A stretch of 64,000 bases of DNA from an uncultured Candidatus Saccharibacteria bacterium (GTDB lineage: Bacteria > Patescibacteriota > Minisyncoccia > Phycocordibacterales > PALSA-1337), in assembly GCA_964406895.1 (NCBI GenBank), contig CAYOTK010000006.1, positions 557-64,556 on the forward strand, given 5' to 3'. Shown here piece by piece: positions 6,044 to 13,833 of this stretch. The notes beneath the pieces were generated by a model. It worked only from the letters and a program-made list of their open reading frames with translations, did not search any database and was not told the origin of the DNA. Each line of letters begins with the position of its first letter. Positions within the stretch are counted from its first letter, which is position 1. The position numbers were made by a program, and so were the translations under genes.

Positions 6044-8266
6044 ATGAAACTTACTCCACAAAGCAGAGTCACAGAGATATTCCGGACTACTGATCTCCAA
6101 AAAGACGCACTGAGAAGAATGGGCATAGAAAGCATAAAAGATCTCATATATTACTTCCCCGTGAGATATGGCGACACAGCTGAAGCAAAAAATATAGACA
6201 GTCTTATTCACGGAGAGAATGTCGTCGTTTATGGCAAAATAACAAATCTCAAAACCAAGAAAAGTTTCCGAAGCAAAATACCGATGGCGCAAGGATACAT
6301 AGAAGATGAAACTGGCAAAATACCTTGTGTTTGGTTCAATCAACCCTACTTGGCCAAAATGTTTTCCGACAACATGCTTGTGAGAATAGAGGGCAAAGTT
6401 TCAGAGAGAAGGAAGAAGCCTCACTCAATAACATTAAACGAAACCCAAGAGGTTGAAGCCGAATCCGGACAATTGTATTTCTCAAATCCCAAAATAGAAA
6501 AAGTAGACAGTGTACCACTGGGTGTCGGAGATTCTCTTTTCGAAAATCAAGAATCAATACACAATCTCTATCCTGTATATCCTGAATCTCGTGGCATAAG
6601 TTCTAGTTGGATATATCACAATATTCAAAAAGTTTTCAAAGCAGGAATTCTAGAACAAATCGTAGAAACTATACCTGAAGAAGTTCTGAATAAATATCAC
6701 CTCCCTTCTATCAAAACAGCCCTTATATGGATACATGCCCCACAGAAACAAGACGACGCAATATCTGCCAGAAAAAGATTTTCATTCGAGGAAATATTCA
6801 CTATTCAACTAGGCAAACAACAAGCAAGAATTGAATATAATAAAAGTCAGTTCTATGATATTACCGTGAATCCACAACATGTCAGAGAATTCGTAAAACG
6901 TTTCCCTTTCACGGCAACACAAGCACAAATGCGTGCAATCGAAACAATCATAAGTGATATGAGTAAAGGTAAAGCCATGACAAGATTGATCGAGGGCGAT
7001 GTTGGTTCAGGCAAAACAGCGGTTGCAGCTTCTGCAACATATGCGGTCATTACGTCGAAAATGAAAGACATGCCTTCGACCAAACTGAGCGTTGCATACA
7101 TGTGCCCTACCGAAATATTAGCCACGCAACATTTCGAATCATTCATAAAATTTTTCTCTTATATGCCTGTACAAATAGGCCTTCTCACATCTTCAGGTTG
7201 CAGGAAATTCCCGTCAAAAATAAATCCAAAAGGTTGGACAGATATATCTAGGACACAACTATTGAAATGGGTTCAAAACGGCGAAATATCTGTTCTGGTA
7301 GGCACACATTCCCTCATCCAAAAATCTGTGAAATTCAAACACCTTGCATTGGCAATAATAGACGAACAACATCGTTTCGGCACATCGCAAAGGTCAAGAT
7401 TAATCAAAAGAGAAGACACAATCATATCACCCCATTTATTGACCATGACAGCTACGCCCATACCGCGCACTCTGGCTTTGACACTATACGGCGATCTAGA
7501 CATCACTTTATTAGATGAAGTACCAGCAGGAAGAAAACCTGTCATTACCGAACTTGTCCTACCTCAAGATCGAGATGCAACATATGAGAAAGTCCGAGAG
7601 GAGCTAAAGAAGGGACATCAATGTTTCGTCATATGTCCCAGAATTGATGAACCGGACCCAGAGAAAGAAATTTTCATAAATGCAAAATCAGTAAAGGAAG
7701 AAGCAAAAAGATTGAAGAAAAAAGTATTTCCAGAATATGAAATAGGCGTCTTGCACAGCAAACTCTCTCCAAAAGAAAAAGATAATGTCATGAATGATTT
7801 CAAAGATGGCAAAACACATATATTATGTTCGACCTCTGTTGTCGAGGTTGGAGTCAATGTACCGAACGCCACTGTTATTCTCATAGAAGGTGCTGAAAGA
7901 TTTGGCCTTGCGCAACTGCATCAACTCCGCGGTAGGGTTCTTAGAAGCACTGATCAAGCTTATTGCTATGTATTCACAGAAACAAATTCCAAGAAATCAA
8001 TCGATAGATTGAAGGCCTTGCAAACAGCAAAAAATGGTTTTGAATTGGCTGAAATAGACCTAAGTCAACGAGGAGCTGGCATGCTGTCGGGCGCAAAACA
8101 GTGGGGCGTATCTGATATCGCAATGGAAGCATTGAAGAATTTGAAAATGGTTGAGGCGGCGAGAAATGAAGCAGCGAGAATTATAGAGGAAGATCCACAA
8201 CTAGAGAAATATCCTCTTCTCAAAGAACGGGTCAAGGCGCATATGGTAGTCTCTCATTTTGAATAG
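6044..8266 (+). CDS. recG: ATP-dependent DNA helicase RecG
   Basis: Wedge-domain N-terminus (YYFPVRYGD), Walker A GDVGSGKT, IIDEQHRFG motif, helicase C-terminal domain; 740 aa. Confidence 0.9.
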   Translation: MKLTPQSRVTEIFRTTDLQKDALRRMGIESIKDLIYYFPVRYGDTAEAKNIDSLIHGENVVVYGKITNLKTKKSFRSKIPMAQGYIEDETGKIPCVWFNQPYLAKMFSDNMLVRIEGKVSERRKKPHSITLNETQEVEAESGQLYFSNPKIEKVDSVPLGVGDSLFENQESIHNLYPVYPESRGISSSWIYHNIQKVFKAGILEQIVETIPEEVLNKYHLPSIKTALIWIHAPQKQDDAISARKRFSFEEIFTIQLGKQQARIEYNKSQFYDITVNPQHVREFVKRFPFTATQAQMRAIETIISDMSKGKAMTRLIEGDVGSGKTAVAASATYAVITSKMKDMPSTKLSVAYMCPTEILATQHFESFIKFFSYMPVQIGLLTSSGCRKFPSKINPKGWTDISRTQLLKWVQNGEISVLVGTHSLIQKSVKFKHLALAIIDEQHRFGTSQRSRLIKREDTIISPHLLTMTATPIPRTLALTLYGDLDITLLDEVPAGRKPVITELVLPQDRDATYEKVREELKKGHQCFVICPRIDEPDPEKEIFINAKSVKEEAKRLKKKVFPEYEIGVLHSKLSPKEKDNVMNDFKDGKTHILCSTSVVEVGVNVPNATVILIEGAERFGLAQLHQLRGRVLRSTDQAYCYVFTETNSKKSIDRLKALQTAKNGFELAEIDLSQRGAGMLSGAKQWGVSDIAMEALKNLKMVEAARNEAARIIEEDPQLEKYPLLKERVKAHMVVSHFE

Positions 8267-8340
8267 TCCGCCCTCTAGGATTCGAACCTAGGACCCCAGA
8301 GGTATAAGCTCTGTGCTCTAACCAACTGAGCTAAGGGCGG
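8267..8340 (-). tRNA. tRNA-Ile with anticodon UAU (reads AUA)
   Basis: 74-nt cloverleaf on minus strand: acceptor CCGCCCT/AGGGCGG, D-arm GCTCAGTTGGTTAGAGC, anticodon arm CAGAG-CTTATAC-CTCTG (U33, anticodon TAT, A37), T-arm CTAGGTTCGAATCCTAG, discriminator A. Abuts recG stop. Confidence 0.75.
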
Positions 8341-8472: not shown

Positions 8473-10380
8473 TTACTGATTTTTTGTCTTCAACGCAATT
8501 CCATGAACACTCAAGAAACCTTCATACTCATCTCGCTCTATAGTCTCCTTCTCTATCAACTTCTTGGCTACAGCCTCAAATACGAGACGATTGTCTATCA
8601 AAGTCTTCTCTGCTTTGACCTTAGCCTCATGCATAATCTTCGTAATCTCAGCATCAACCTCCGCTGCCACGCGCTCGGAGTAATCCCTGTCATTCACACC
8701 CATACCAAACAACACTCTTCCTGTCGGACTCTCGAGAGCTACCGGACCGAGCTTATCTGACATGCCGTACTGAGTGACCATACTCCTCGCAAGAGCAGTC
8801 GACACCTGCAAATCATTCGAGGCACCTGTTGTTATATCACCAAACATCATTTGTTCGGCCACATAACCTCCGAGAGAAACAGCGATGTCGTCCAAGAATT
8901 CACGTCTTGATTGCAATTTCCTATCTTCAATCGGTAATTTGAGTGTATAACCCGCCGCACGACCACGAGAAATAATTGAGATCTTATGTACAGGATCTGC
9001 ATTAGGTAAAACCGAAGCAACAATAGCGTGTCCCGCTTCGTGGTAGGCTGTTATTTCTTTTTCTTTCGCTGACAATATATGACTTCTCCTTTCCGGACCG
9101 AGCATTACTTTCTCGATCGATCTTACTAGATCGAATTGACCTATCTTTGTTCTTTCTTCTCTGGCGGCCAATATAGCTGACTCATTCATAAGTGAATACA
9201 AATCTGCTCCAGAAAAACCCGGCGTTCTTTCTGCTACCACCTGAAGATTGACGTCTTCTGCCAATTTCTTCTTGGATGCATGTATCTTCAATATTTCTTC
9301 CCTATCACTTCGATCTGGCAAATCAATAACTACTCTTCTGTCGAATCTTCCGGGTCTCAAAAGAGCTGGGTCTAGTACATCTGGTCTATTTGTGGCAGCC
9401 ATCACTATGACTTTTTCGTTTGGCTCGAAGCCGTCCATCTCAACAAGTATTTGATTGAGTGTTTGTTCGCGCTCGTCATTACCACCACCAACACCCGAAC
9501 CTCTTGCTCGACCTACTGCGTCTATCTCGTCTACGAATACGATAGAAGGTGCAGTATTTTTGGCTGCCCTGAATAAATCTCTGACCCTCGAAGCACCTAC
9601 ACCTACGAACATTTCTACGAACTCTGAACCAGAAATCGAATAAAAAGCGACATTTGCCTCACCAGCCACCGCTCTTGCCAATAATGTCTTACCACAACCT
9701 GGAGCGCCCATAAGAATAACACCCTTTGGAATTTCTGCGCCTATTTCTATGAATTTCTTTGGATTCTTCAAGAAGTCAACGATCTCTGCCAATTCTTGCT
9801 TTGCTTCTTTTGCACCCGCAACATCTTTGAAAGTTACTTTTTGTTTCTGATCATCGGGCATACTTATTCTGGCTTTTGATTGACTGAATGACAAAGCTTG
9901 CATTCCAGCCCCTCTCACTTGTCTCGATAGAAACCAAATGAAGAAAATCAAGAGCAATAATGGTGCGAGAAATGGCATTAGTAAACTAGCCCAATAAGTA
10001 AATCCGCTAGGCTCAACCACACTGATGGTGGTTGTTGATAATTTTTCTTCCTTGACCCCCAATCTAGAAAGAGTCTCTGTGATCGACGAATCATTTTCCT
10101 TCTGAGAAATTTTCACCGTGCCATCTTTGTATGCTGCAGATATTTTATTATCAGATATTGTCAACGACTGTATTTTGCCTGAATTGATATCGGATGCGAC
10201 CGTATTCAAAGATATTTTGTTTGATTGCTGATTGACATTAGAAAATTCATTGTATATTCCAGCAATAAGCAAGAAGACAATAATAACTATTGCTAGTGCG
10301 TTCAAAAAACGAAGTCCTGAAGACAGGAAACTATTACCCTTCTTACCTTTTGGGTTTTTATTCTTAGGATTAACGGGCAT
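8473..10380 (-). CDS. ftsH: ATP-dependent zinc metalloprotease FtsH
   Basis: N-terminal TM, AAA Walker [22 protein letters not shown] region, zinc-binding HEAGHAIV; 635 aa. Confidence 0.95.
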
Positions 10381-10442: not shown

Positions 10443-11168
10443 CTATTTCACCTTCAGCGTAGACATTATTCCAAAGAAATATTCTTCTGCTCTACTAGGA
10501 ATAATCACGCCTGCAATTTCATAAGCTTTCTTATAATCAGCATTGATTGGTGAAAATTCTGGCACAAGAGGACTTGTAATAACAACTGTTTTATTAGAAG
10601 AGATAACTAAATAATAAATATTCAAGCCGCAACCTTCAACTCCAGGAGTTACATGATATCCACTATAAGGTCCGAACTTATATGGACTGTTGGAAACATA
10701 ATCCCATTCCGGCCAACCGCTAGTCTTCAAATATTCTCGAACGCTCTGATTGACAACTTTTATTGATACCTGGAAATCATTTAGAACATTAAGCATTGGA
10801 CCACCTCCTTTCATGTCACAAAAATCATAATGTTTATAAGGCACAGAATGAGAAACAGTAACTTCGCCGTTTTCTTCTTTCAGTGTCAGGATTGATGGAT
10901 AGTCAAAAGAAAAATTACTTCCAGAATATGACTGAATTTTTGAGACTGTAGATTGAACGCCCGCAGGAATGATCTGTGCATTATTGTCTTCCTGTATTTT
11001 GTTTACAATATTTTTTGGGATTTGAGTATTTACAAAAGAATCTTCAATGACTACGTCTGATTTCATCTCCACATTTGCTTTTCTGAAATAAAATAAACCG
11101 CCTGCCAGCAAAGCAACGATGATCACTAATAAAGATACTATTACATAATTTTTTTGTGTGTTGTTCAT
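10443..11168 (-). CDS. hypothetical membrane-anchored/secreted protein (241 aa)
   Basis: Single N-terminal TM helix (VIVSLLVIIVALLAGGLFYF) then soluble domain; no recognisable motif. Confidence 0.45.
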   Translation of the reverse strand: MNNTQKNYVIVSLLVIIVALLAGGLFYFRKANVEMKSDVVIEDSFVNTQIPKNIVNKIQEDNNAQIIPAGVQSTVSKIQSYSGSNFSFDYPSILTLKEENGEVTVSHSVPYKHYDFCDMKGGGPMLNVLNDFQVSIKVVNQSVREYLKTSGWPEWDYVSNSPYKFGPYSGYHVTPGVEGCGLNIYYLVISSNKTVVITSPLVPEFSPINADYKKAYEIAGVIIPSRAEEYFFGIMSTLKVK

Positions 11169-11233
11169 GAGGTGATTATATTATAAAGGGATGAGTAAGT
11201 AAAAATGAGAAATTAGAAAATTGCAATAATAAA

Positions 11234-11257
11234 CGGGAATCTCGCCTTACAGGCGCT
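11234..11257. repeat. 24-nt direct repeat copy (cgggaatctcgccttacaggcgct), partner at 11835..11858; distal boundary of an ssrA-associated islet
   Basis: 24/24 identity with 11835..11858. Confidence 0.6.
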
Positions 11258-11459
11258 CGGAGCTATTTTTTATTGTGGACTTGGTGAGCCAAAGTTGGAA
11301 CAAACTACATCCTTGGGTTTTTGAGGCGTCTGAAATGATTACAGGGGGCAGGAGGTTTCGGAAAAAGACTTACATCTGCTTAACAGTTAGTTATCCATTA
11401 ATCACATGATGAGATTAAAACTTACATAAATGAGAAAGACCTTCCTGAGAAAGCCATTT

Positions 11460-11760
11460 GAAGGTCAGTCTCATGAAGGTCTGGTCAGTGACATGTGTTA
11501 ATGTAACTCGCGATTTCCATGGCATACTTGCTGTCCAGGCTATCGCCAACTTCACCAACACACACGTCGTTTACTCTCCGAGCCACAAACCTTTGCTGAC
11601 TCGCATCCAACTGGGCATTTTCATTAACGCCTTCCCGGAGAAAGATAACGAACATTCGTCGGCGATTCTCAGAATGCGCACAAAGATCTGCCATATTCGC
11701 AAGAAACCTATCCGCTTTCATTTTTTCAGAAGGCATTTCACCTTGGTCCTGTTGTTTCTT
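11460..11760. other. GC-enriched (~48% GC) segment with overlapping candidate ORFs on both strands (11458..11946 +, 11485..11736 -); coding strand unresolved
   Basis: Base composition clearly above the ~35% window background; neither ORF has a recognisable motif. Confidence 0.3.
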
Positions 11761-11823
11761 TGGAGGCAGGAATACCTCAAAACTACTACTAAAATGTTAG
11801 CATGTATATACATAAAAGTCAAT

Positions 11824-11842
11824 AGTGGAGATGGCGGGAATC
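11824..11842. repeat. 19-nt direct repeat of the ssrA 3' terminus (agtggagatggcgggaatc), partner at 12361..12379
   Basis: 19/19 identity to the tmRNA T-arm/acceptor 3' end; the next 16 nt instead continue into the 11234 repeat. Confidence 0.65.
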
Positions 11843-11867
11843 TCGCCTTACAGGCGCTGTACAGGTC

Positions 11868-12131
11868 TCACATTTTCGTCTCAAAACCGTTTGCATACAT
11901 ATTTATCAAAAAATCCTTCTTTTCTCTACGCCACTTCTTTATTTGATTTTCCCTTTTGCGCGCCTCACTGAAAGTTAAATATTCCTCCAAAAATACAATA
12001 CTAAATCCACCAATCTTAGTAAAAGAAGCACCTCTTTTTGAGTTGTGATCATAAAGACGCTTTTGAGGGTCGTTAGAAACACCGACATACAATCGATTAT
12101 TCATATCACGTATCATATAAACAAATGGCAT
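11868..12131 (-). CDS. stand-alone GIY-YIG nuclease family protein (UPF0213-like, 87 aa)
   Basis: FVYMIRDMNNRLYVGVSNDPQKRLYDHN ... EARKRENQIKKWRREKK matches GIY-YIG (URI) domain motifs. Confidence 0.7.
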   Translation of the reverse strand: MPFVYMIRDMNNRLYVGVSNDPQKRLYDHNSKRGASFTKIGGFSIVFLEEYLTFSEARKRENQIKKWRREKKDFLINMYANGFETKM

Positions 12132-12362
12132 ATTATTAATATAAAAAATTATGGTTTTTAAATGTTAAAACGCGCAATCAAAGATCAAAAACATATGCAA
12201 AAATGTCCTTCGACTACGCTTCGATCATATTATAAGATAATACATAGAGTTCGTGCCTCAGCTTCGCTCAGGGCACTCGCCTCTATTGCAATTCTCAATG
12301 TTCGTGGCACATGGTGGTTTACCACGAGCGAGTCCTTCGCGATTAGCGAAGGACGAGTCGAG

Positions 12363-12733
12363 TGGAGATGGCGGGAATCGAACCCGCGTGCAATCGAGAT
12401 TTGTCGGTTACTTCTACGATGATATCAAACTTTATCCGCAAAGCGGTTTAACAAATGTGCCCAAGAAAGTTTGCAAAAAGCACAATTGCGATCTCTATGT
12501 TTCGGGTCTTGGAGTGAGAAGTTCCACTACCCTACATCCAAGTTATTACGCCAACACTACAGTTAGGATCCCTGCAGAGTGACGGCACTTAAACAAGTGC
12601 GAATGCGAAGTCCTTGGCTCCGAAATACGGAGATACAGAAGATTTAGCATTTATGGTTTCTGTCAGATTTACGAGTTAACAGTGCTCGCATCGCATGACC
12701 GGAAATGTTCAATTGTCTAGACCGATCATCCCC
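12363..12733 (-). ncRNA. ssrA: tmRNA (SsrA)
   Basis: 5' GGGGATGATCGGTCTAGAC..., 3' GCGGGTTCGATTCCCGCCATCTCCA (T-arm and acceptor with G3:U70 alanine identity pair), located immediately downstream of smpB on the same strand. Candidate tag ORF GCT AAA ... CTT GTT TAA. Confidence 0.8.
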
Positions 12734-12788: not shown

Positions 12789-13235
12789 TTACCTGTCAAT
12801 GAACTCTCTTCTAATTTCCCTATCCACTTCTCTCTTCTTTGTGGTTTCGCGCTTGTCGAATTTCTTTTTACCACGGACAACTGCAATACTTACCTTAACT
12901 AAAGGACCCTTATTATATATTGAAATTGGCACTATTGTCAAACCCTTACTACCCTCAGCATCAGCTAGACGTCGAATTTCATCTCTAGTCAGAAGTAGGC
13001 GGCGATTTCTTCTTGGTTCATAACCTTTCGGAGTATTGTTTTCCTGATACGGTGGCAAGAATATATTCACGGCGTAAGCTTCTCCCCCACGCACGATGAC
13101 ATAGGCGCCATCTAGAGAACCTTGGCCTTTCTTTATTGATTTAACTTCGAAACCATAGAGTTCGATTCCTGCTTCGTATTTGTCGATGATTTCATAGTTA
13201 AAATTTACCTTTTTATTATCTACGAAAGTTGTCAT
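12789..13235 (-). CDS. smpB: SsrA-binding protein SmpB
   Basis: 148 aa, FNYEIIDKYEAGIELYGFEVKSIKKGQGSLDGAYV typical of SmpB; adjacent to tmRNA. Confidence 0.9.
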   Translation of the reverse strand: MTTFVDNKKVNFNYEIIDKYEAGIELYGFEVKSIKKGQGSLDGAYVIVRGGEAYAVNIFLPPYQENNTPKGYEPRRNRRLLLTRDEIRRLADAEGSKGLTIVPISIYNKGPLVKVSIAVVRGKKKFDKRETTKKREVDREIRREFIDR

Positions 13236-13302: not shown

Positions 13303-13833
13303 GTGAAGATGAGTCAAAAAACAAAACCAAAAAATTACGCTTTCATAGATAGCCAAAATCTGAATCTGGGAATAAGGAAACTCGGCTGGAAATTAGACTA
13401 CAAGAAATTTAGAGTATACCTCAAAGAAAAATACAACGTTGAAAAAGCCTATATGTTTATAGGATTTGTTTCTTTAAATCAAGGACTGTATAGCCGACTG
13501 CAAGAATCTGGTTTTATTGTAAATTTTAAACCGACAATACCAGACGAAGAAGGAAAGATTAAAGGCAATGTCGATGCGGATTTGGTATTACAAGCAATGA
13601 TCGAATGGAATAATTATGACAAGGCAGTAATCATTTCAAGTGATGGTGATTTCTATTCATTAGCTCGACATTTAAATGAAAACGACAAACTCAGTGCTGT
13701 GATTAGCTCGGATATCGAAAATTGTTCGAGTTTACTCAAAAAAGTTGTAAGAGATAAAATCCAATTCATGTACGATCTTAAAAACAAACTTCAGTACATA
13801 AACGACAAACACCACTTAAGGACGAAACCTTAA
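13303..13833 (+). CDS. NYN/LabA-like (PIN-related) domain protein
   Basis: YAFIDSQNLNLGIRKLGWKLDYKKFRVYL ... resembles the NYN domain N-terminal motif (xxFIDgxNl). Confidence 0.45.
   Translation: MKMSQKTKPKNYAFIDSQNLNLGIRKLGWKLDYKKFRVYLKEKYNVEKAYMFIGFVSLNQGLYSRLQESGFIVNFKPTIPDEEGKIKGNVDADLVLQAMIEWNNYDKAVIISSDGDFYSLARHLNENDKLSAVISSDIENCSSLLKKVVRDKIQFMYDLKNKLQYINDKHHLRTKP

Follow-up and report, generated by a model that had tools for sequence, protein, structure and literature searches.

GIY-YIG homing genes, free-standing in the case of T4 Seg and intron-borne in the case of I-TevI, are known as the sole genes of selfish cassettes, and a GIY-YIG gene carried by a group I intron is known in the T loop of transfer-messenger RNA (tmRNA). 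Here we describe a 64-kb stretch of DNA from an uncultured Candidatus Saccharibacteria bacterium (contig CAYOTK010000006.1; hereafter called the window), in which a 519-bp unit directly behind the tmRNA gene (ssrA) likewise has a GIY-YIG nuclease gene as its sole gene. Like the T4 Seg and I-TevI elements, the unit is inserted beside and not inside a conserved gene, and its distribution is patchy and incongruent with the relationships of its hosts. However, its protein is a bare 87-aa domain of the UPF0213 type with no separate DNA-recognition domain, and we know of no Seg or I-TevI element that has the four-helix, target-pairing left end, the defined right arm, the target-end repeats, and the gene-less miniatures that are present here. 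We assign a probability of roughly 0.6 to the explanation that the islet behind ssrA represents at least two stacked insertions of miniature selfish elements that target tRNA-like 3′ ends in Patescibacteria and are moved by nuclease-triggered copying.

Several other systems also bear a resemblance to this unit. The rRNA genes of the Candidate Phyla Radiation (CPR) carry non-intron insertions that encode GIY-YIG proteins and are unlike group I or II introns (PMC11270868). These share with the unit the same radiation, the presence of GIY-YIG open reading frames (ORFs), and an association with stable-RNA genes, a likeness drawn from their description. The CPR insertions lie inside genes, whereas the unit adjoins the 3′ terminus of a tmRNA or tRNA gene exactly and leaves that gene intact, and the report on them makes no mention of tRNA or tmRNA (PMC11270868). 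Recombinase islands and cis-mobilizable elements in tRNA and tmRNA genes also exhibit repeats that begin in the T loop and comprise the 3′ portion of the RNA gene, restoration of the gene by the insert, outward stacking (tandem accretion), and variable DNA past the distal repeat. In contrast to these islands, the unit is only 0.5 kb in size, has no recombinase in or near it, and has its left junction after C74 of the RNA gene. Moreover, one dedicated RNA target would be expected for each type of island, whereas the unit resides at tmRNA, tRNA-Ala (three anticodons), tRNA-Glu, tRNA-Ile, and ruvC. The unit also appears to resemble elements of the IS200/IS605 type, which insert 3′ of a short fixed motif and exhibit subterminal hairpins, pairing between flank and internal sequence beside a hairpin foot, and non-autonomous miniatures, but it has a GIY-YIG protein rather than an HUH tyrosine transposase, and long repeats flank it at some sites. 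The unit is a selfish nuclease-gene cassette that shares traits with each of its nearest systems and fails one defining feature of each. The element family is apparently undescribed so far, as the literature that we searched contains no description of GIY-YIG or UPF0213 cassettes at tRNA or tmRNA 3′ ends.

The genome of the window was placed in Patescibacteria (Paceibacteria, Taylorbacteria-like). The window was compared with other loci, designated by L numbers, among them two sets. One comprises 80 related ssrA loci fetched with the SmpB protein; within species-representative genomes, SmpB identity to the best matches is 72-78%. The other is a metagenome set of 80 loci picked by GIY-YIG similarity alone in a scan with the homologue alignment. 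The parts of the window on which the argument depends are as follows.

12362-12733, minus strand: tmRNA gene (ssrA), complete (ARAGORN; Rfam RF00023, 99 bits, 12360-12733)
12361-12379, minus strand: repeat copy 1, which spans the tmRNA 3′ end (T loop through C74; GATTCCCGCCATCTCCAC) and adds a T, the first base of the unit
11868-12131, minus strand: 87-aa stand-alone GIY-YIG nuclease gene of the UPF0213 (YhbQ-like) type (PF01541)
11843-11867, minus strand: right arm (GACCTGTACAGCGCCTGTAAGGCGA; hairpin CGCC-TGTAA-GGCG), 100% identical in L082 and in the distant host L179
11824-11842, minus strand: repeat copy 2, in which part of the tmRNA 3′ end, beginning within the T loop, is fused to the right arm
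11234-11257, minus strand: repeat copy 3, made up of right-arm sequence (16 nt, 11242-11257) and the opening 8 nt of the tmRNA fragment (GATTCCCG, 11234-11241)

An earlier note on this DNA had reported that the last 19 nt of tmRNA recur at 11824-11842 and that a different 24-nt sequence recurs at 11234-11257. Both identities are exact in the 64-kb window: the 19-mer at 12361-12379 recurs at 11824-11842, and the 24-mer at 11835-11858, which overlaps this second 19-mer, recurs at 11234-11257. Among 100 dinucleotide-preserving shuffles of the window, with as many as 3 mismatches allowed, none reached two matches for either the 19-mer or the 24-mer, and so chance was rejected as the origin of the repeats. 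The assignment of all 19 nt to tmRNA needs a small correction, because 18 nt are derived from tmRNA and position 12361 is a shared T one base outside the gene. The tmRNA gene of the window encodes A73-C74; the CCA is not encoded. When read in tmRNA orientation, copy 2 consists of AGCGCCTGTAAGGCGA joined to the same 19 nt as copy 1, and copy 3 consists of AGCGCCTGTAAGGCGA joined to GATTCCCG alone. The 35-nt composite at 11824-11858 has a single occurrence in the window.

The proximal unit extends from 12361 down to 11843 and is intact. Its left end begins right after C74 of the tmRNA or tRNA gene (..CCAC/TCGACTCG, with the slash denoting the junction) and is followed by a four-helix fold, the GIY-YIG gene, the 25-nt right arm, and then the target's 3′ end, copied from the T loop onward. 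Because the tmRNA terminus is repeated behind the arm, the tmRNA gene remains complete, with direct repeats on either side of the unit. Across the metagenome loci the left junction is constant (..CCAC/TCGAYTCG), directly after A73-C74 of the RNA gene. In L003 or L004, the uninterrupted ssrA 3′ region reads ...GGGTTCGATTCCCGCCATCTCCAC/AA.., and the complete unit of the proximal type is present in more than 100 related loci.

The left end of the unit forms a conserved structure whose components in the window are listed here.

12192-12373, minus strand: structured left end (covariance model R1, 93.3 bits; 43-sequence covariation; comparison with L082)
12354-12364, minus strand: P1 5′ strand (CAC plus TCGACTCG)
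12334-12353, minus strand: hairpin H1
12314-12325, minus strand: hairpin H2 (GTGGTAAACCAC)
12274-12284, minus strand: P1 3′ strand (AGAGGCGAGTG)

In the general plan of this leader, the 5′ strand of helix P1 comprises the last 3 nt of the RNA gene and TCGACTCG, and is followed by H1, whose sequence is free. Next come the motif CTCGCTC, hairpin H2 (GTGG-YAAR-CCAC), and a variable stretch, and the leader concludes with the P1 3′ strand (CGAGTCGA-GTG) and hairpin H3 (YCCY-GAGCG..AGTCGA-RGGR), which in the window is split by an insertion relative to L082. Among 43 aligned sequences, 90.1% of cells conform to the pairing compared to 33-39% with slid partners, and the covariation score of 0.294, versus about 0.07, was reached by none of 500 shuffles. 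Covarying pairs occur as C-G or U-A in 33 and 10 sequences for P1 and in 26 and 17 sequences for H2. Helix P1 takes in the last 3 nt of the RNA gene itself, and the pair formed by C74 is U-A instead of C-G in one aligned sequence (L119). The same CAT/ATG change was read outside the 43-sequence alignment in L122 and L161. Wobble counts (15 G-U/U-G versus 7 A-C/C-A) do not decide the strand of the fold.

The covariance model yields about 80 matches above 50 bits in 83 loci, and these are located upstream of essentially every gene of this GIY-YIG subfamily. Among the 1.05 Mb that comprise the 80 ssrA loci and the window, all matches above 90 bits are at GIY-YIG sites, including one with a decayed gene (L025). 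The next matches both lie in L053, a GIY-less mini unit at 52 bits and a leader fragment at 32 bits, and five weaker matches elsewhere score 16-25 bits. No Rfam family matches the leader: a gathering scan and a scan at E <= 10 across 11000-12450 yielded tmRNA and, beyond that, noise. A group I intron or known ribozyme was likewise rejected, because beyond tmRNA no Rfam family was found at E = 0.1 across 11000-12450, the tmRNA is complete, and Rfam searches of ten related loci gave tmRNA and tRNA only. A −10-like box is located no more than 45 nt from the start codon in 36 of 63 leaders, and thus the promoter of the GIY-YIG gene would fall 3′ of the fold. In 12 of these 63 leaders, a hairpin plus T-run terminator is present between H2 and the P1 3′ strand by a strict test.

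Some leaders are more elaborate. The module of H2, variable stretch, P1 3′ strand, and H3 occurs in two to three tandem copies upstream of some GIY-YIG genes (L104 3767-4000, L122 89-430, L159 347-600, L163 1-233, L175 3704-4000). Solo leader-like matches also appear about 1 kb downstream of other GIY-YIG genes (L111 5036-5137, L112 1715-1832, L115 2498-2599).

The ORF between tmRNA and the first repeat copy had been read as an 87-aa GIY-YIG nuclease, and its GIY-YIG domain is borne out by PF01541 (67.5 bits against a cutoff of 22.6, E 1.3e-18, residues 2-71). When compared with the PDB, the family profile gives its best matches to the UPF0213 proteins 1zg2 (BH0048; 9.1e-14) and 1ywl (EF2693; 2.3e-13), which are relatives of E. 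coli YhbQ and were both deposited as hypothetical proteins. Matches to SLX1 follow (6e-4 to 8e-3), whereas those to I-TevI (0.05) and UvrC (0.45) are marginal. SLX1 itself is a eukaryotic nuclease that is larger, acts in a structure-specific manner, and has a partner subunit. In an alignment of 26 homologues, G17, R25, H29, E49, R60, and E61 are invariant, Y15 is nearly so, and the first Tyr motif (VYM) is found in every row that includes the N terminus. These residues are of the catalytic type, and by analogy they may serve catalytic roles. In the literature searched, neither UPF0213 proteins nor SLX1 are described as mobile.

The distribution of the unit is best appreciated by comparing host and cassette. 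Loci L082-L093 carry the same gene at the same place with flanks that are 94-98% identical, and their gene order is the same as that of the window (PLD-NYN-smpB-tmRNA-GIY-...-241-aa gene-FtsH). In L174, host proteins are 91-95% identical to those of the window, while the GIY-YIG protein is only 71% identical. The reverse is true of the distant host L179, in which SmpB and the PLD protein are 57% and 66% identical but the GIY-YIG protein is 86% and the right arm 100% identical. At the DNA level, the GIY-YIG ORFs are 62-87% identical, and the tmRNA gene ranges from roughly 60% (L179) to roughly 90% (L174). Only 12 of the 80 ssrA loci carry a GIY-YIG gene, and some of these belong to a second subfamily. 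The closest relatives that lack the gene (L002-L004 and L010, SmpB 72-78%) have other DNA behind tmRNA, which agrees with the earlier proposal that the DNA behind ssrA in the window is inserted. This patchy distribution, together with similarity that is incongruent with that of the hosts, indicates that the unit moves horizontally. The gene is kept in the immediate clade of the window, yet given this incongruence it is not a conserved core gene of the locus.

The insertion targets are the 3′ ends of tRNA-like genes, or minimally a site that ends in ..CCAC. In the metagenome loci, a tmRNA or tRNA gene precedes the GIY-YIG gene on the same strand at a distance of 90-450 nt. Among 59 distinct loci with enough upstream DNA, the 5′ neighbor is tmRNA in 32 and tRNA in about 10, and at several loci missed by ARAGORN the tmRNA end is recognizable by eye. 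Among the tRNA targets, Ala occurs with three anticodons, which takes in the Ile-Ala pair found in rRNA spacers, and the others are Glu and Ile-UAU. At all other loci the 5′ neighbor is not an RNA gene, and most of these sites end in ..CCAC; four of them (L123 488-990, L133, L147, L167) are in the 3′ end of ruvC, with the unit on the strand opposite to that gene. There, about 33 nt that encode the C-terminal tail of RuvC flank the unit on both sides with about 80% identity, and ruvC thereby keeps an intact end.

Two other arrangements of GIY-YIG genes were encountered. Genes of the second subfamily (84 aa) directly follow a tmRNA gene with a fully encoded CCA (L011 8889-9143; also L033, L041, and L074), and their leader is analogous but different in sequence (CTTCGC-hairpin-GCTTCGCGGTGCAAGCACC). 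A second region of L011, 10643-11623, was noted as well; farther downstream, this locus has an ORF the size of an IS30-like transposase and a homologue of an 83-aa ORF of the window that is discussed below. Additional GIY-YIG genes are located immediately upstream of tRNA-Ile(UAU), between FtsH and the tRNA, in L045 (5262-5504, minus strand) and L069 (9119-9370), and thus come before and not after the RNA gene.

Assemblies independently break within a few nt of the tmRNA end or of the left end of the unit. L001 ends (contig end, window 12393) 31 nt, or one k-mer, past the tmRNA 3′ end, and L087 and L163 begin 5 nt before the left end of the unit. These breaks suggest graph branching that is induced by repeats or polymorphism at the junction.

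Target-end repeats of variable length bracket the unit, and these usually but not always track the host. In the window, L082, and L179, the GIY-YIG stop codon is followed by the same 25-nt arm and then by a partial tmRNA end from the T loop. Copy 2 of L179 (GATTCCCGGCATCTCC) carries that host's own T-stem variant, CCCGG, and not the variant of the window. Similarly, L040 and L173 have near-identical units behind different acceptor ends, and their distal copies differ likewise. A repeat of the 5′ flank after the GIY-YIG stop codon is significant in 7 of 60 loci, and a universal duplication of the target at this position was rejected for that reason. Further flank repeats were found by eye, such as 8 nt at a non-RNA site (L143) and the approximately 33 nt in ruvC.

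Numerous loci also carry miniature derivatives that lack the GIY-YIG gene, which we call U units. These are 120-160 nt in length and reside just behind the tmRNA terminator in L002, L003 (two in tandem, 9008-9450), L030 (8992-9500), L035, L037, L075, L077, L080, L098, and L109; those of L035, L037, L075, L077, and L080 are no more than 300 nt after tmRNA. At the start of each, the 3′ end of the host's own tmRNA is copied in antisense (acceptor strand, an interrupting GC hairpin, then T stem and loop), and this copy co-varies with the host tmRNA sequence in five genomes. Each U unit ends with a direct partial tmRNA copy from the T loop. The right ends of those in L030, L035, and L080 hold the last GIY-YIG codons plus the junction (..AAAAGACTTAGTRAYTYGTGAC/CGATTC..; compare the ORF ends of L126 and L113). 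Both U units of L003 end in ..GAAAATACGAGACCTCTACCGAGTCTGTAAGAC/TCGATTCCCG, which is homologous to ..GAAAATGTGAGACCTGTACAGCGCCTGTAAGGCGA/GATTCCCG of the window, with compensatory changes in the TGTAA hairpin. In addition, a 170-nt unit in L053 combines a left end of the GIY-YIG type with an interior and right end of the U type. The presence of the last GIY-YIG codons and the junction indicates that U units are internally deleted derivatives, similar to miniature inverted-repeat transposable elements. Their antisense copies might act as guides or as terminal inverted repeats, or they might be scars of fold-back repair after repeated cleavage. We also considered whether copies 2 and 3 of the window are leftovers of host U units that are unrelated to the GIY-YIG unit. 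This was rejected because the right arm accompanies the GIY-YIG gene into the distant host L179 and because U units themselves hold the last GIY-YIG codons.

Beyond copy 2, the window contains a second segment with the following features.

11794-11822, minus strand: sigma-70-like promoter by consensus match alone (TTGACT-17-TAACAT, TG-extended), located immediately behind copy 2
11485-11736, minus strand: 83-aa ORF of a very small family, without a Pfam, NCBIfam, or PHROG match
11438-11455, minus strand: terminator-like hairpin 3′ of the 83-aa ORF; the control regions recur in L174
11258-11437, no strand assigned: stretch without a counterpart in L174 or L082, presumably an interior remnant of an older unit
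10443-11168, minus strand: 241-aa conserved neighbor gene (context); collinearity with L082 and L088 resumes at 11212

This DNA is a hypervariable slot and not a second GIY-YIG unit, as it is made of a promoter-ORF-terminator cassette, about 180 nt of other sequence, and a right-arm stump. L174 has the promoter/5′ untranslated region and the terminator in common with the window, but with a different, longer ORF between them, and it lacks the stretch from 11437 to 11213 that ends in copy 3. In L082, positions 11827-11212 are replaced by 2.7 kb with three ORFs for which no Pfam matches are on record. Similar TTGACA boxes are found behind the last tmRNA-end copy in L003, L037, L096, L130, and L179. 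Copy 3, in which 16 nt of the same right arm are joined to 8 nt of the tmRNA fragment, is a stump left by an older unit, one of the type that the window itself carries. The suggestion that two successive events might have occurred is therefore supported, with at least two required. The ORF of this segment had rightly been called uncharacterized: a search of 1.8 billion representative proteins gave about five small relatives, none of them annotated, one of which is behind the L011 tmRNA. Both this homologue and the 83-aa ORF end in ..INTCH. The GC content of the segment had been put at about 48%, a value that holds for just one 200-nt window (0.485 at 11500-11699); the full range is 0.395-0.485, and the flanks are at roughly 0.30-0.39. 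A 162-aa ORF on the plus strand (11458-11946) was taken as spurious because it has no family match and overlaps the minus-strand features.

The surroundings of the islet include one further listed feature.

12789-13235, minus strand: smpB (context), directly upstream of tmRNA (PF01668, 1.3e-47)

A gene for an NYN-domain protein (predicted RNase; 13303-13833, plus strand) is divergent from smpB, and its position is kept in close relatives. A tRNA-Ile gene (anticodon UAU; 8266-8340, minus strand) lies beside ftsH and recurs near ssrA in most related loci. The tag frame of the tmRNA (12588-12647) predicts a tag, AKSSVSPYFGAKDFAFALV, that ends in ALV, where ALAA is the common ending, and a tag ending in ALV is also predicted in the closest relatives (L002-L004, L007, and L009-L011).

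Large serine recombinase genes abut or overlap the tmRNA 3′ end at six related loci. All have Resolvase, Recombinase, and Zn_ribbon_recom domains.

L006, 8737-10314, minus strand: large serine recombinase
L007, 8853-10514, minus strand: large serine recombinase
L024, 8804-10183, minus strand: large serine recombinase
L042, 8865-10376, minus strand: large serine recombinase
L073, 8789-10432, minus strand: large serine recombinase
L078, 5581-7182, minus strand: large serine recombinase

A conserved module (TTTTGAGCCTCTGG..GGTAGCGACAGAATAGCGGTTTCAAACCC) is present right after tmRNA in L006 and L070, with a looser version in L073. L078 also carries a 40-nt tandem duplicate of the tmRNA end.

It is in view of such loci that an integrase-based origin for the islet deserves consideration. 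Islands of this kind would have entered the T loop of ssrA with a replacement 3′ end and then decayed to attL/attR scars, leaving the GIY-YIG gene as cargo, or else the units would be satellites that were moved in trans. The identity blocks of integrases are direct repeats that extend from the T loop to the end of the gene, as in the window. Furthermore, a remnant of the tmRNA-proximal module of the recombinase loci is present between the two mini units of L003, and the DNA after copy 2 is swapped from one close relative to the next: the window has 0.6 kb there and L082 has 2.7 kb, and L175 and L179 carry other content. However, the islet contains no recombinase, as its ORFs are the GIY-YIG gene and the 83-aa orphan, and its neighbors are smpB, the NYN and PLD genes, FtsH, and the 241-aa gene. 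By tblastn, the 64-kb window has no serine-recombinase-like match, although tyrosine recombinases were not exhaustively excluded window-wide; the earlier statement that no integrase is present holds for the vicinity of the unit. The same decay would be needed many times to explain a 0.4-0.5-kb unit with identical ends behind several tRNAs, in rRNA spacers, and in ruvC. Likewise, the left junction lies after C74 and not in the T loop, and both unit ends are kept in the GIY-less derivatives. For these reasons we consider an integrase origin improbable, and the classic signature of site-specific integration, or a decayed island, that the earlier note had seen here does not hold up. Its other option, an integrase-less element of the homing type, is the better of the two.

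Another mechanism to be weighed is a single-strand 'peel and paste' process similar to that of IS200/IS605 elements, wherein insertion occurs 3′ of CCAC, an internal GTG at the 5′ foot of H3 serves as a guide that pairs with the flank, and the GIY-YIG protein cuts. Such a process would account for the fixed tetranucleotide of the 5′ flank and for the lack of a fixed-length target duplication, and it is compatible with the subterminal hairpins at both ends (H1-H3 and the right-arm hairpin) and with the covariation of CAC/CAT in the flank with the internal GTG/ATG. The terminator between the P1 strands also argues for a DNA fold over an RNA fold. Nevertheless, GIY-YIG is the only domain found in the unit, with no HUH or tyrosine transposase, and flanking repeats of 18-33 nt are not predicted by this process. 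To our knowledge, GIY-YIG enzymes act by hydrolysis, and neither covalent intermediates nor strand joining is known for them. We therefore give this process only a small chance of being correct. Less probable still is that the gene serves the host, for example as a nuclease for 3′-end maturation or repair of the adjacent tRNA or tmRNA gene that is kept beside its substrate. The gene is indeed retained behind ssrA through the immediate clade (window, L082, L174, L175, and L179), its ORF is intact with conserved residues of the catalytic type, and its leader pairs with the terminal nucleotides of the RNA gene. Yet the next relatives lack it, as do 68 of 80 ssrA loci, its similarity is incongruent with host similarity, the same cassette occurs at unrelated sites such as ruvC, and decayed and truncated copies exist (L025 and L053).

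Our favored mode of movement is intron-less homing, in which a break made by the nuclease triggers copying of the unit. The predicted nuclease, whose nearest characterized relative is a branched-DNA cutter, might introduce a break close to the T loop or 3′ end of a naive target (a tRNA or tmRNA gene), and repair would then copy the unit from an occupied allele. The left homology arm would be the highly conserved RNA gene, and the right arm would be the unit-borne copy of that gene's 3′ end. Homing with these arms would explain both the start of the repeat in the T loop and its usual match to the resident tmRNA, and it would also account for repeats that mix donor and recipient sequence. Copy 3 is the right arm plus truncated repeat of an older unit that is mostly lost, and the promoter-ORF-terminator cassette separates this older unit from the intact one. 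One ORF of the window outside the islet matches the Competence (ComEC) family (1.8e-45), and DNA uptake of the ComEC type would supply the second allele needed for homing.

Several observations weigh against nuclease-triggered copying. The flanking repeats vary in length (8 to about 33 nt), and at most sites none can be detected. In L053 and L130, the repeat is mismatched to the T stem of the host; this mismatch fits a unit-borne copy and not a duplication made in situ. The 87-aa protein is a bare catalytic domain without a DNA-binding module of the I-TevI or Seg kind. The large serine recombinase genes that adjoin the tmRNA 3′ end in 6 of 80 related loci could act in trans. An intrinsic terminator often falls between the P1 strands, so that the fold might form either in RNA or in single-stranded DNA. 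Finally, exact-protein look-ups with SmpB, the 241-aa gene product, and FtsH did not find a strain-level pair of empty and occupied sites.

The covarying helix and the antisense copies of the tmRNA end hint at target recognition by base pairing, which would be new for this enzyme class. It is tempting to speculate that the 87-aa UPF0213 nuclease and the folded left end of about 130 nt constitute a complete autonomous element that finds its target by base pairing with an antisense segment encoded by the element, although we regard this guided form of the proposal as rather unlikely. The antisense segment would be the GTG beside H3 in full units and the approximately 20-nt antisense copy of the host tmRNA end in the GIY-less derivatives.

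The exact 3′ end of tRNA-like genes is the best-conserved landing pad for a parasite that crosses species. Units and their stumps account for much of the hypervariable DNA behind ssrA in Patescibacteria, and they may explain the contig breaks that occur there. UPF0213 (YhbQ-like) proteins are widespread and have no assigned role, and here one branch of them supplies the only gene of a mobile cassette whose target is defined, which provides a concrete biochemical hypothesis for the family. If the guided proposal is true, then the unit would represent a nucleic acid-guided insertion system built on a GIY-YIG enzyme, would be among the smallest mobile elements known, and would reveal the first function for the UPF0213/YhbQ family.

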